Source: a bacterium (GTDB lineage Bacteria > Patescibacteriota > Dojkabacteria > SC72). Taken from it: 60,403 nt of DNA. Positions 3,074-7,911 of the stretch are shown here, piece after piece. Positions within the stretch are counted from its first letter, which is position 1. Every line of letters begins with the position of its first letter. The translations under genes and the position numbers were made by a program. The stretch covers positions 1 through 60,403 of the forward strand of contig JALHDC010000005.1 in NCBI GenBank assembly GCA_022840695.1, in the 5' to 3' direction. The notes beneath the pieces are model-generated. The model was given only the letters and a program-made list of their open reading frames with translations, was not told the DNA's origin and ran no database searches.

Positions 3074-3886
3074 ATGCCTGAAGAAATAGAGAAAAAGCAG
3101 AAGAGGTTTTTTAAAGAGAAAATATCTAGATACAGACCTGTTGTTTTTATACGGAAAAATATATATGTATTTTCTTTTATATCTCTTTTTTCTTTGTCAT
3201 TGTTGTTTGGATTTTGGAATATTAAAAAATATGAGATATATGACATAACAGGTTCTACCGTTGATGAAAATGTTAAGGAAGATATAGATAAATATTTTGA
3301 TGAAAATATACAGGGTCAAAACTATTTTGTGCTCTCTCCCACGGAGTTAAGAGAGAAGATGTATTTAGATATATCATATGTAAAGAGTGTCAGAATAGAG
3401 AAGGTTGTGCCTAATAAATTGATATTCTTTTTTGAGATATACTCTCCACAATATGTTGCAAAGATTGCAGAAAAAAATTGTTATATCTTGTCTAACGAAG
3501 GAATTGTCTTGGAACAGCTTTGTCTTGAGGGGGATGATGAATGTTGCAAACAGATATCACTTGAAAAGAAACTTCCATTTGTTCTTTCTTCTGATATAGA
3601 TATATCATTTTTTGAAGATCAAAAGGATAGATTACTCATAATGGAGGATATAAATAAAATATATACTGTTATTAGTAGTTTTAAATATGTAATTACTGAT
3701 ATTACATTAGATGATGAGGTACTTGAACTTTCGGATGAGCAGGGTAAAATATTTAGGTTCAATATAAATGATGATGTACAGTTACAAATAAAAAGATATA
3801 TCTCTGTAATGAAGAAAATAAGAAGCGATGGAATGGAGTTTAATAGTCTAGATATGAGATTTGAAAGACCTGTTATGAAGATCTAA
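3074..3886 (+). CDS. ftsQ: Cell division protein FtsQ/DivIB-like
   Basis: Single N-terminal TM, POTRA-like segment (YVKSVRIEKVVPNKL), C-terminal LDMRFERPV; directly upstream of ftsA. Confidence 0.75.
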   Translation: MPEEIEKKQKRFFKEKISRYRPVVFIRKNIYVFSFISLFSLSLLFGFWNIKKYEIYDITGSTVDENVKEDIDKYFDENIQGQNYFVLSPTELREKMYLDISYVKSVRIEKVVPNKLIFFFEIYSPQYVAKIAEKNCYILSNEGIVLEQLCLEGDDECCKQISLEKKLPFVLSSDIDISFFEDQKDRLLIMEDINKIYTVISSFKYVITDITLDDEVLELSDEQGKIFRFNINDDVQLQIKRYISVMKKIRSDGMEFNSLDMRFERPVMKI

Positions 3887-3997: not shown

Positions 3998-5296
3998 ATG
4001 GCACGCAAAATAATAACAGCAATAGATGTAGGTTCCTCAAAAATTACGACAGTAATTACAGCTGTAGAGGATAATCAACAACCTACAGTTATCGGTGTCT
4101 GTTCTCATCCAAGTAAGGGTATCAAGAAAGGAGTGGTGGTTAATATAGATGATGCTACTAGTGCCATTTCCGAAAGTGTCACTGCTGCAGAAAGAATGGC
4201 CGGCGTTACAGTTTCCGATGTGTATGTTTCTATCAATGGTGAACAGGTAACAAGTTTGAACAACAAAGGTGTTGTCGCAGTTGCTGGTTCTGAAATAACT
4301 ATTGATGATACATATAGAGCTATTGAAAATGCTAGAACTTTATCTCTTCCTGATAATCTTAATCCTATCCATATTATTCCTAGAGAGTTTGTAGTGGATA
4401 ATCAGGGAGGTATCAAGTATCCAATTGGCATGAGTGGTGGAAGGTTAGAGGTAGAGACACACATAATTACAGCACCAAATTCATATTGGCAGAATATTAA
4501 AAAATGTGTGGATCAGATAGGATCAAATGTATATGATGTGATATTTACAGGTTGGGCTTCCTCTCTTTCTGTTTTAACTGATACAGAAAAAGAGTTAGGT
4601 GTAACACTTTTGGATATAGGTTCTGGAACCACCAGTATTTGTATTTTCCAAGAAGGTTCAGTCATATATAGTGGAAGCATTCCTATAGGTGGTAATAATA
4701 TCACAAGTGATATCGCTATTGGATTACAGGTTTCTTTAGAGGATGCTGAAAAGATAAAAATAAATATGGGAGATCTCTTTGATAATAAGTGTGTTGATAA
4801 CAAGAGTAAAAATATGGATTCAACACCTGCTTTATTGAGAAAATTAGATGAACCTAAGGGTAAGAAGGAAAAAAGTGAAGAGGTCGATTTAAATGTAATT
4901 GGTGTAGATAAAAAAGTATCTAAGGATATGTTACAAAAAATAGTAGAAGCAAGATGTGAAGAAGTTTTTGAAATGGCCAAAGATAATGTTACGAAAGCTG
5001 GATATGAGATATCAATGCCAGCAGGTATAGTTCTAACAGGTGGTACCAGTTTATTAAGAAATCTTACGAAATTAACACAGTGTGTATTTGGTGTAGCAGC
5101 AAGGGTAGGGTATCCTTCAGGTCTTACAGGTATGACAGAAGAAATATCAGATCCTTCGTATGCAACTGTTCAAGGCTTGATAAAGCATGCACTAGATGAT
5201 GATGTTGAAATTTCTTCTTCTGTAGATAAGGGTAAATCTAGTATGTCTGGTTTCTTTAATAAGGTTACAGAGTGGTTTAAGTCTTTACTGCCCTAG
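3998..5296 (+). CDS. ftsA: Cell division protein FtsA
   Basis: AIDVGSSKI, LLDIGSGTT, GIVLTGGTS actin-fold motifs; C-terminal amphipathic helix (FFNKVTEWFKSLL). Confidence 0.97.
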   Translation: MARKIITAIDVGSSKITTVITAVEDNQQPTVIGVCSHPSKGIKKGVVVNIDDATSAISESVTAAERMAGVTVSDVYVSINGEQVTSLNNKGVVAVAGSEITIDDTYRAIENARTLSLPDNLNPIHIIPREFVVDNQGGIKYPIGMSGGRLEVETHIITAPNSYWQNIKKCVDQIGSNVYDVIFTGWASSLSVLTDTEKELGVTLLDIGSGTTSICIFQEGSVIYSGSIPIGGNNITSDIAIGLQVSLEDAEKIKINMGDLFDNKCVDNKSKNMDSTPALLRKLDEPKGKKEKSEEVDLNVIGVDKKVSKDMLQKIVEARCEEVFEMAKDNVTKAGYEISMPAGIVLTGGTSLLRNLTKLTQCVFGVAARVGYPSGLTGMTEEISDPSYATVQGLIKHALDDDVEISSSVDKGKSSMSGFFNKVTEWFKSLLP

Positions 5297-5327: not shown

Positions 5328-6560
5328 ATGTTAGTTACAACAAATGTAGATCCGGTAGCGAAAATAAAAGTGGTTGGTGTTGGTGGTGGTGGATGTAATG
5401 CAATCAATACTATGATTACCGACTATGATATTGCCGGTGTTGAATTTATGGCATTTAATACAGATGCTCAGGCATTAAAAATGTCTCAAGCTCCAATAAC
5501 TTTGCAATTAGGAGAGGAATTAACGCACGGTTTAGGTGTAGGAGGAAATTACGAATTAGGGGCACAAGCTGCTGAAGAAAGTATTGATCAAATACAGGAG
5601 CTTTTAGAAGGTGCTAATATGGTCTTCATTACGGCAGGTATGGGTGGTGGGACAGGTACAGGAGCCGCTCCAATTGTTGCAGGTGTTGCAAGAAACATGG
5701 GTGCACTAACAGTAGCTGTAGTTACAAGACCTTTTGATTTTGAAGGAAATAAAAGAAAGGAGATTGCAGAAGAGGGTATTAATGCAATGAGAGATAAGGT
5801 TGATACTTTAATTGTTGTTCCTAATCAAAGATTGTTAGAAATAGTTGATGAGAGTGAGAAACTTTCCTTTATAGATGCCATGAAGAAAGTAGATTCTGTT
5901 CTCGCAGAAGGGGTAAATAGTATATCTGGATTAATTAGTCAAACAGGATATATTAATGCTGACTTCAATGATGCTAAATCAGTTATGCAAAATGCAGGTA
6001 CTGCTTTAATGGGTATAGGTAGAGCTAGTGGAGAAAATAGGGCTGAAGAGGCTGCTAGAGCAGCTACAACAAGTCCATTGCTTGATATGTCCATAGAGGG
6101 TGCAACAGGTGTTCTTTACAATATTGTTGGTTCAGATTTAACTCTTCCTGAGATAAGTTTGGTATCTGAATTAATTAAAGAAGCAGTAGATCCTGCAGCA
6201 AATATTAAATTTGGTGCTCAAATAGATCCAGATGCTGGAGATGAAATTTCCATAACAATAGTAGCTACTGGATTTGATGAAAATAAACAGATATTTACTA
6301 AAAAAGAAAGAGGTTTCGGTGGTACTGCTACAAATGTTAGAACATTCGGATTTGATACTAAAGAAAGTAGTACTGATACTGATGAAATGGAAGAATTTGA
6401 TGTTGTAAAAGAGGTAGAAAAAGAAGAGCTTCCTTCCTTTGAAGAGGAAGACACTACTTCTGATACAGTAGATATGCCATTAAATACAGATCTACCCAAT
6501 GATGTCGGAGATGATCCATTAGATGTTCCAGCATTCATGAGGAAAAGAGATAGTAAGTAA
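5328..6560 (+). CDS. ftsZ: Cell division protein FtsZ
   Basis: GVGGGG, tubulin signature GMGGGTGTG, INADFND, C-terminal LDVPAFMRK. Confidence 0.99.
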   Translation: MLVTTNVDPVAKIKVVGVGGGGCNAINTMITDYDIAGVEFMAFNTDAQALKMSQAPITLQLGEELTHGLGVGGNYELGAQAAEESIDQIQELLEGANMVFITAGMGGGTGTGAAPIVAGVARNMGALTVAVVTRPFDFEGNKRKEIAEEGINAMRDKVDTLIVVPNQRLLEIVDESEKLSFIDAMKKVDSVLAEGVNSISGLISQTGYINADFNDAKSVMQNAGTALMGIGRASGENRAEEAARAATTSPLLDMSIEGATGVLYNIVGSDLTLPEISLVSELIKEAVDPAANIKFGAQIDPDAGDEISITIVATGFDENKQIFTKKERGFGGTATNVRTFGFDTKESSTDTDEMEEFDVVKEVEKEELPSFEEEDTTSDTVDMPLNTDLPNDVGDDPLDVPAFMRKRDSK

Positions 6561-6588: not shown

Positions 6589-7911
6589 ATGAGTTTTCTA
6601 AGCTCTACTAACAAGAGAAGTATTAAGGTTAATACTACAATTCTTTTTATACTATTTTTACTTTCAGGAATTGGAATTCTTTCTCTTCTCTCTACTACAA
6701 TACTACCATCTGGGACATTTGGAGACTTGGACATAGTTTACAAACAGTTACTATTCATCATCTTAGGATTGGTAACATACATAATCTTTTCATATATAGA
6801 TCTTTCTTATCTAAAACATTGGCAAATTCTTTTAGCAATATATCTCCTTACCCTTCTCCTTCTAATCTTTACTCTTCTTTTTGCACCAACAATCAATTTT
6901 GTTAAAAGATGGTTAGTAATTGGTGGAATACAAATTCAACCATCCGAGATAGCCAAAGTTACAGTAACTATATTTACAGCAGTAATCCTTTCAAAAAAGG
7001 ATACCATTAATGAATGGCTTCTTTTTGTAATATCTTTTCTTCTAACTCTGCCTTTAGCTATTCTAATATATCTTGAACCACATGCTAGTATGGCACTGCT
7101 AACATTGGCAACATGGTTCTTCGTTGCATTTTTGGGTCTTTCTAATCCTGTAAGGAATACGATACTATTAATAATACTTTCCTCTCTTACAGGAGCATTC
7201 CTCCTAAGTTCTATAACCTCAAATCATAATTGGTATTTTCTTGCTATACCAGGAGTAATTCTTTCAATATTTGCCTTCTATTCAAGTAAATCTTGGAAAA
7301 ATCTAGCTGTAATAGTTTTTGCTATTGGTATTCTTCTTGGATTTATATCATCCACAGTCTGGGAAAATGTCCTAAAAGATTATCAAAAAGATAGAATTGT
7401 AGCATTCTTTAATCCAGAAGGAACAGAATCCGATATTGGTTTTAATGTTAATCAATCTAGAATTGCAGTGGGGTCAGGAAAGATATTTGGTAAAGGATTT
7501 GGTAATGGTACACAAAGCAAAAGAAATTTTCTTCCTGAGCATCAAACAGATTTCATCTTTGCATCCTTTGCAGAAGAATTTGGACTTGTAGGTAGTCTTT
7601 TCCTCATGGCTATATATGGATATATTGTGCTTTTTTGTTTCTTCACTGCTATTAATATTGCTGAAGATCCAATGCTTTCTCTAATATCCCTTGGGGTTGG
7701 TGTGAAAGTACTTCTTGAAGTTTTTATTAATATTGGAACAAATACTGGAGCCATCCCTGCTACGGGTATTCCTCTTCCCCTTATGAGTGCAGGTGGGAGC
7801 ATAACTTTGATGACTTTTCTTTGTTTAGCATTGGTTGGAAATATATCCTCTAATGTTTCCAAATTAGGTAGGGTGGAACAAAGAAATCTGGTTAATATAT
7901 ATGAAGAATAG
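6589..7911 (+). CDS. SEDS family protein (FtsW/RodA)
   Basis: KRWLVIGGIQIQPSEIAK, QSRIAVGSG, LPEHQTDFIF, IPATGIPLPLMSAGGS. Confidence 0.95.
   Translation: MSFLSSTNKRSIKVNTTILFILFLLSGIGILSLLSTTILPSGTFGDLDIVYKQLLFIILGLVTYIIFSYIDLSYLKHWQILLAIYLLTLLLLIFTLLFAPTINFVKRWLVIGGIQIQPSEIAKVTVTIFTAVILSKKDTINEWLLFVISFLLTLPLAILIYLEPHASMALLTLATWFFVAFLGLSNPVRNTILLIILSSLTGAFLLSSITSNHNWYFLAIPGVILSIFAFYSSKSWKNLAVIVFAIGILLGFISSTVWENVLKDYQKDRIVAFFNPEGTESDIGFNVNQSRIAVGSGKIFGKGFGNGTQSKRNFLPEHQTDFIFASFAEEFGLVGSLFLMAIYGYIVLFCFFTAINIAEDPMLSLISLGVGVKVLLEVFINIGTNTGAIPATGIPLPLMSAGGSITLMTFLCLALVGNISSNVSKLGRVEQRNLVNIYEE

Follow-up and report, generated by a model that had tools for sequence, protein, structure and literature searches.

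We analysed the cell-division gene cluster in a 60,403-nucleotide stretch of DNA from Dojkabacteria, which are tiny, uncultured bacteria (contig JALHDC010000005.1 of assembly GCA_022840695.1), hereafter called the window, in which a ftsQ-like gene (3074-3886), ftsA (3998-5296), ftsZ (5328-6560), and a ftsW/rodA-like gene (6589-7911) lie in tandem order. The host genome measures 773 kb and is 98% complete, and the names that NCBI gives to close homologues of its FtsA are those of Candidatus Dojkabacteria (candidate division WS6, Patescibacteria/candidate phyla radiation, CPR). Within an enlarged loop of the FtsA protein lies a short linear motif, D274-S-T-P-A-L-L-R-K282 (4817-4843, forward strand), which was recognized by its conservation, its score on a position-specific scoring matrix (PSSM), and a predicted turn in an AlphaFold2 (AF2) model, and which resembles the C-terminal peptide of FtsZ, the ligand of FtsA itself.

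The ftsA gene (forward strand) encodes a 432-residue, canonical four-subdomain FtsA with one insert, as judged from its open reading frame (ORF), Pfam matches, AF2 model, and Foldseek matches. The protein matched PF14450 (FtsA) at 133.5 bits, with a cut-off of 31.8, and PF02491 (SHS2_FTSA, subdomain 1C) at 87.7 bits, with a cut-off of 25.4. The AF2 model, which was built from a 94-sequence alignment, adopted the FtsA fold with subdomains 1A, 1C, 2A, and 2B at a mean predicted local distance difference test score (pLDDT) of 83, with the core above 90. The best Foldseek matches to this model were all FtsA, with a template modelling (TM) score of 0.88 to Vibrio maritimus 7q6f and of 0.82-0.83 to 4A2A, the Thermotoga maritima FtsA entry that contains FtsZ residues 336-351. 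Relative to ordinary FtsA proteins (Escherichia coli 7Q6D, V. maritimus 7Q6F, Staphylococcus aureus 3WQT, and T. maritima 1E4F), the domains are the same, the fold agrees at TM 0.82-0.88, and the C-terminal amphipathic helix and the ftsQ-ftsA-ftsZ gene order are alike, whereas ~23 extra residues in a 2B loop, which carry the motif, set the Dojkabacteria protein apart.

This loop, D259-E294 (4772-4879, forward strand), is charged and variable by alignment, pLDDT, and column entropy, and it is ~23 residues longer than in ordinary FtsA. The distance from the AExIK helix to the ARxEE helix is 73 residues here, compared with 48-52 residues in ~120 of 150 diverse FtsA representatives and exactly 50 residues in most FtsAs, and most FtsAs align to the query by phmmer in two separate segments, with the break at residue ~258-260. 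The region reads AEKIKINMG-DLFDNKCVDNKSKNM-DSTPALLRK-LDEPKGKKEKSE-EVDLNV, with IVEARCEE further on, and alignment to E. coli FtsA places the extra residues in the 2B loop that runs from the helix ending in INMG to the strand EVDLNV. An original prediction made from the DNA letters alone had proposed that FtsA carries an insertion in subdomain 2B at 4771-4885, a range that spans G258-V296, with an FtsZ-tail-like motif inside it. Both the range and the motif positions proved exact, and the interhelical distance and the break in the phmmer alignments bear out the insertion. Since the E. coli alignment also puts the two helices of the FtsZ-tail site in subdomain 2B, the insert and the site lie in one subdomain, as had been proposed. 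Separately, we observed that the same loop is enlarged by 2-25 variable, charged residues in Microgenomates and WWE3 FtsAs (loci L063-L116), although these inserts lack an FtsZ-tail-like word, and the 2B loop seems to be a general insertion hotspot in CPR FtsA.

The FtsZ encoded downstream ends in DDPLDVPAFMRKRDSK, where the conserved C-terminal peptide, D395-DPLDVPAFMRK406 (6510-6545, forward strand), is followed by RDSK, and where DVPAFMRK corresponds to D399-K406 (6522-6545). A terminal word of the form [DE]x[IVKT]P[AS]F[LM]R[RK] is common to the FtsZ of all relatives examined. When STPALLRK and DVPAFMRK were aligned without gaps, they shared four identities (P, A, R, and K) and three conservative pairs (T/V, L/F, and L/M). 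The four identities stand as first proposed, but the Asp of the FtsA motif lies one residue further upstream than the earlier alignment had implied: it is displaced by one residue in the window's family and in register in families f2, f7, and f15 (f1 to f21 are our labels for the Dojkabacteria families in the analysis). In the insert, the core word P-[AST]-hydrophobic-x-R-[KR] is preceded by a residue that is beta-branched or hydrophobic and by an Asp. The two elements thus have the same core word and, in several families, a Leu/Phe-Asp prefix, as well as a disordered tether and short helical propensity. In contrast with the free C terminus of FtsZ, however, the FtsA word is internal to FtsA and tethered at both ends, and it is a look-alike of the FtsZ C-terminal peptide rather than a member of that class.

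Read as descriptive figures, several genome-wide counts underline this likeness. In a scan of all six-frame ORFs of at least 80 amino acids (339,662 residues), the pattern PA[hydrophobic][hydrophobic]R[KR] had two occurrences, one within the insert of FtsA and one within the tail of FtsZ. On a PSSM of 40 distinct CPR FtsZ tails, the FtsZ tail scored 31.3 bits, the word KDIPTLLRQ 13.7 bits, and the FtsA word 12.4 bits, which ranked it third of 326,686 genome positions; across PSSMs built from 40-59 FtsZ tails, DSTPALLRK scored 12.4-15.2 bits. The best word elsewhere in this FtsA scored below 0 bits, and none of 200 shuffled inserts reached the score of the motif. At the level of the peptide, the mimicry of the FtsZ tail by the FtsA insert is solid.

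Two other words with some likeness to FtsZ tails were set aside. KDIPTLLRQ (contig C19, forward strand, offset 383) lies in a 253-residue ORF that has an ATP-grasp-like GGILEINTMPE segment and no Pfam match; the word probably arose by chance within a folded enzyme. NPSLMRR on contig C18 lies in a Ser/Leu/Pro-rich ORF that is probably spurious. A recent DNA copy of the 3' end of ftsZ into ftsA was also ruled out, because the 13 of 24 bases that match are explained by the shared residues alone. Read-through fusion of ftsA and ftsZ is impossible, with the frames +1 apart, several stops in the spacer, and no CGG codon.

Conservation provides a test of the motif that is independent of how it was first seen. 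Among orthologues from the window's genus, family, and order (n = 36), the flanks of the insert varied freely, while [DK]-x-T-P-A-L-L-R-K was near invariant in f1, f4, and f5. Column entropy was 2.5 bits in the N-terminal flank (residues 259-273) and 2.1 bits in the C-terminal flank (residues 283-294), compared with 1.1 bits in the motif and a mean of 0.66 bits in the core. P277 was kept in 46, L279 in 44, and R281 in 41 of 48 distinct order-level orthologues. Among proteins from public metagenomes clustered at 90% identity, 117 of the nearest 120 clusters retained [TIRM]-P-[ATV]-[LI]-L-R-[KR]. At the conserved motif residues, all four codons were in use for Pro and for Ala, six for Leu, and four for Arg. 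Since codons turned over while the residues remained unchanged, selection acts on the peptide and not on the DNA or RNA. Judged from these alignments, the motif is an island of conservation under purifying selection.

These data bear directly on the alternative that the insert is neutral filler whose likeness to the FtsZ tail arose by chance. The flanks of the loop are indeed highly variable, and many lineages lack the motif. However, its residues were kept through synonymous change that has reached saturation, and it is the sole word of its kind in the genome besides that of FtsZ itself. Because of the codon turnover, the outcome of the 200 shuffles, and the near-complete conservation among the nearest clusters, a chance origin is largely refuted, and we consider it highly improbable.

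The AF2 model of FtsA predicted that the insert is disordered, with pLDDT below 50 at residues 265-276 and 280-292; only P277-L279 reached a pLDDT of at least 50, and A278-L280 formed a one-turn helix. In an f18-type relative (locus L061), which carries IPSYLR at residues 275-280, the motif block had a mean pLDDT of ~70 (52-56 in the later linker) with a helical turn at residues 277-279. On these models, the motif looks like a short linear motif that folds on binding, with no indication of the site on its partner.

We examined how far the motif extends across the class in a sample of 80 GTDB species, which were found by a degenerate-pattern search, and 40 genomes from 16 further families. At the loop site, f1, f4, and f5 carried TPALLRK; f2 carried LDKPALERR, LDTPAINRR, or LDTPTLRRR; f7 carried FDVPAISRK; f13 carried NTPAINRK; f15 carried DSPSFLRK; and f18 carried [IVM]PSYLR[AN]. 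Several of these words are nearer to FtsZ tails, which in the same genomes read LDVPAFMRK, LDKPAFMRR, ETPSFLRRKK, and DTPAFMRRR, than is the window's own word. On the FtsZ-tail PSSM, the family words scored 4-17.6 bits, compared with less than ~1 bit for the rest of FtsA. Only charged filler was found at the motif site in f3, f6, f8, f9, f14, f16, f19, f20, and f21. In f10, f11, and f17 (loci L121, L122, L124-L127, L138, and L055), the site held another conserved word, EAT-K-[KR]-x-K-[LVI]-L-G, which has neither the Pro nor the Arg; this KRxK[LVI]LG-type word may be a degenerate descendant of the motif or a replacement for it.

Outside the class, none of the loops of 59 WWE3, Microgenomates, CPR2, and Chloroflexi FtsAs scored above 0 bits on the FtsZ-tail PSSM (best scores -25 to -2 in the WWE3 and Microgenomates inserts), and the strict pattern had no match in the loop of 150 broad FtsA representatives. 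The only near-matches among the latter came from Dojkabacteria-like proteins, P0126 (TPALLKK) and P0124 (NNIPSLRSD). The original prediction had singled out conservation in related FtsAs as the comparison to make, and its outcome was positive: the motif is kept amid variable flanks in close relatives and stays FtsZ-tail-like across the class.

In an FtsA tree built without the insert columns, the class formed one clade (Shimodaira-Hasegawa-like approximate likelihood ratio test, 100), with the motif-less f9 and f21 basal. Motif-bearing families are spread over all three of the other main branches, and one of them, f7, is basal within the second. The simplest reading of this distribution would be that the motif arose once, early, and was then lost several times. 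We detected no signal of covariation between the motif and the FtsZ tail in these families, since tails of the canonical form occur in motif-bearing and motif-less families alike. As a separate observation on FtsZ, the proteins of f10, f11, f16, and f19 (loci L117-L128) have a fixed end, ETPSFLRRKK[DN]Y, with a terminal Tyr, in contrast with the PAFMRK type of the window's order.

The class-wide distribution also bears on whether the likeness is convergent, with the word serving FtsA itself as a contact between subdomains IIA and IIB in FtsA filaments, as a cap that orders the 2B loop, or as a Thr-Pro phosphorylation site. Subdomain IIB makes the longitudinal contact of FtsA filaments (PMC7613929), the window's word shows a Leu where FtsZ has Phe and one more residue separating Asp from Pro, and the FtsZ tail is unchanged where many families have lost the motif; loops that are rich in Lys and Arg and contain a Pro and two hydrophobic residues are, moreover, not rare in themselves. 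However, the variants found in distant families shift towards the FtsZ consensus (SPSFLRK, FDVPAISRK, LDTPAINRR, and IPSYLRN), while the inserts of the sister classes never exceed 0 bits on the FtsZ-tail PSSM. A phosphorylation site is unlikely as the conserved feature because Thr276 is replaced by Ile, Lys, or Arg in many motif-bearing relatives. Weighing these points, we judge convergence unlikely.

If the likeness to the FtsZ tail is functional, a candidate receptor is the FtsZ-tail groove of subdomain 2B. In E. coli FtsA, an AlphaFold fragment model that is reported to be consistent with the Pichoff-Lutkenhaus mutants places the FtsZ-tail site at residues 234-245 and 294-304 (PMC10769210). 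By alignment, these residues correspond in the Dojkabacteria protein to 230-241 (GGNNITSDIAIG) and 313-323 (QKIVEARCEEV). The former belong to groove helix 1 (G230-Q244, GGNNITSDIAIGLQ; 4685-4729, forward strand), which aligns to E. coli residues 234-248, and the latter to groove helix 2 (K309-M326, including IVEARCEE; 4922-4975, forward strand), which aligns to E. coli residues 294-304. Seven groove residues (T236, D238, A240, G242, L243, R319, and E322) are invariant in 149 CPR FtsAs, and the receptor residues for the FtsZ C-terminal peptide are intact in this FtsA.

One position at the end of groove helix 1 varied among lineages. At residue 244 (4727-4729), the last of ITSDIAIGL-x, the 59 outgroup CPR FtsAs all have Arg, as do most motif-less Dojkabacteria families. 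The motif-bearing clades f1-f5, f13, and f18 have Gln, f6 has Ser or His, and f7 and f15 combine the motif with Arg. At least two independent Arg-to-Gln changes have occurred, a pattern that is suggestive, although the independent-pairs test applied to it has no statistical power.

The genome was also searched for other readers of the FtsZ tail. SepF, MinC, EzrA, ZipA, and ZapD were not found in the 98%-complete genome, while positive controls in reference genomes worked. Since these other known tail readers are absent, the one known receptor in this genome is the groove of FtsA itself, and the suggestion in the original prediction that the loop serves as bait for further proteins that bind the tail is weakened. 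As to the accompanying idea of an intramolecular decoy, the loop has a pLDDT below 50 in the structure model except at P277-L279, so that stable docking in cis is not predicted for this FtsA.

A related possibility is that the motif docks another partner, either the globular core of FtsZ, as a second, reciprocal contact, or a CPR protein, as yet undescribed, that recognizes the FtsZ tail as well as the FtsA loop. Motifs that bind in trans typically take the form seen here, with a conserved linear word exposed on a disordered loop, and the failure of AF2 to dock the motif in cis fits such a role as well. In other species, moreover, FtsZ tail fragments have been predicted or shown to bind the FtsZ core (PMC10769210; PMC12747378), and two-pronged binding of FtsZ has been reported for ZipA (PMC8669495). 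On the other hand, no known tail reader is encoded, no candidate partner emerged from the analysis, and the Bacillus subtilis tail-core element (PMC12747378) lies in the linker and not in the conserved C-terminal peptide. We therefore regard docking on another partner as rather unlikely.

The reading that we put first, tentatively and at somewhat less than an even chance, is that the motif acts as a pseudo-ligand, fills the groove for the FtsZ tail either in its own FtsA molecule or in an adjacent one, and thereby tunes the tethering of FtsZ. The recognition features of the motif comprise a hydrophobic/Asp prefix, a Pro, a small residue, a hydrophobic residue, any residue, an Arg, and a basic residue. 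Tethers of ~12-15 residues on its N-terminal side and ~12 residues on its C-terminal side connect it to the same 2B subdomain that holds the groove and, from their contour length, could reach either the groove of their own molecule (cis) or that of a neighbour (trans). A tethered and probably weak copy of the FtsZ tail, present at high local concentration, would occupy the groove, and FtsZ tails would have to displace it. An occupant in cis would raise the threshold for FtsZ binding and lower the affinity for a single FtsZ, so that multivalent FtsZ filaments would be favoured. An occupant in trans would instead link FtsA molecules until FtsZ tails displaced the loop.

Autoinhibition by a pseudo-ligand is known in unrelated proteins, such as importin-alpha, whose importin-beta-binding (IBB) domain resembles a nuclear localization signal (NLS), and kinases with pseudosubstrates, in which a weak internal copy of the ligand admits only strong or multivalent ligands; the analogy with FtsA is one of logic only. 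Closer to the divisome, intramolecular switches have precedents in the C terminus of Streptococcus pneumoniae FtsA (PMC4252000) and in the tail-core binding and autoinhibition of B. subtilis FtsZ (PMC12747378). In both cases, a disordered segment folds back on a functional surface of its own protein and gates assembly or partner binding. The segments and surfaces involved differ from those considered here, however, and neither segment is a copy of a partner's docking peptide.

Several observations weigh against a pseudo-ligand in the groove. Leu stands in the window's family where FtsZ tails have an aromatic Phe, and the following residue is non-hydrophobic (S, N, E, or R) in several families, so the affinity of the motif for the groove may be low or nil. 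The single-chain AF2 model gave no confident docking of the motif. Many families lost or replaced the motif while their FtsZ tails stayed canonical, which indicates that cells can dispense with its function and that this function does not change in step with the FtsZ tail. Since the pattern was defined after it had been seen, the rarity and PSSM figures carry descriptive weight only, and the independent test is that of conservation. A profile-profile comparison of motif and tail (P = 5e-4) used alignments that were registered on the motif and is circular, so it was left out of the evidence. Finally, groove binding and each of the consequences set out above are steps that we infer. With these points in view, the interpretation in the original prediction is supported in part, and a decoy function of the insert is plausible, while the stronger proposal, that a built-in copy of the partner's docking peptide gates the FtsZ-binding groove of Dojkabacteria FtsA, appears doubtful.

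We found no description of an FtsZ-tail-like motif in FtsA in the literature searched. Established at this locus are the motif and its position, the predicted disorder of its loop, the selection that acts on the motif, the class-wide likeness of the motif to FtsZ tails, and the absence of other known readers. What is new, on the comparisons made here, is a lineage-specific, conserved, ligand-like motif on an otherwise ordinary FtsA.

If the pseudo-ligand reading is correct, this protein would be the first FtsA known to be regulated in such a manner. In a cell without ZipA, SepF, Min, or Zap proteins, competition between loop and tail would let FtsA tell FtsZ filaments from monomers; alternatively, FtsA molecules would be held to one another by the loop until FtsZ arrived. 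In a variant of this gating scheme, the two proteins would make a reciprocal swap, with the FtsA loop on the FtsZ core while the FtsZ tail sits on FtsA. How the affinity of FtsA for FtsZ and its oligomeric state are controlled is a central open problem of division, one in which many accessory proteins take part in model organisms, and a stripped-down divisome with a look-alike of the FtsZ tail on the receptor itself suggests a self-contained regulatory device. Were the loop to compete with the FtsZ tail, it would constitute a natural inhibitor or gate, and a tunable one, for the contact of FtsA with FtsZ and would show that reduced genomes can replace lost regulators by short linear motifs. 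Together with the losses, the family variants, whose key position holds Leu, Ile, Tyr, or Phe, provide a natural mutational series.

The remaining features of the two proteins are conventional. FtsA ends in an amphipathic membrane-targeting helix, GFFNKVTEWFKSLLP (5243-5293, forward strand), which AF2 models as a helix at residues 419-428 after a disordered linker; its membrane role is assigned by analogy with what is established for FtsA and should be read as putative. The ftsZ gene (forward strand) encodes 410 residues with Pfam Tubulin and FtsZ_C matches. In its acidic and otherwise variable linker (6320-6450, residues ~333-374), the words V-RTFGF-D and E-[ED]-LPSFE-E were kept when FtsZ proteins of the window's genus and nearby genera were compared, and these could be further short linear motifs or the mere effect of short divergence.

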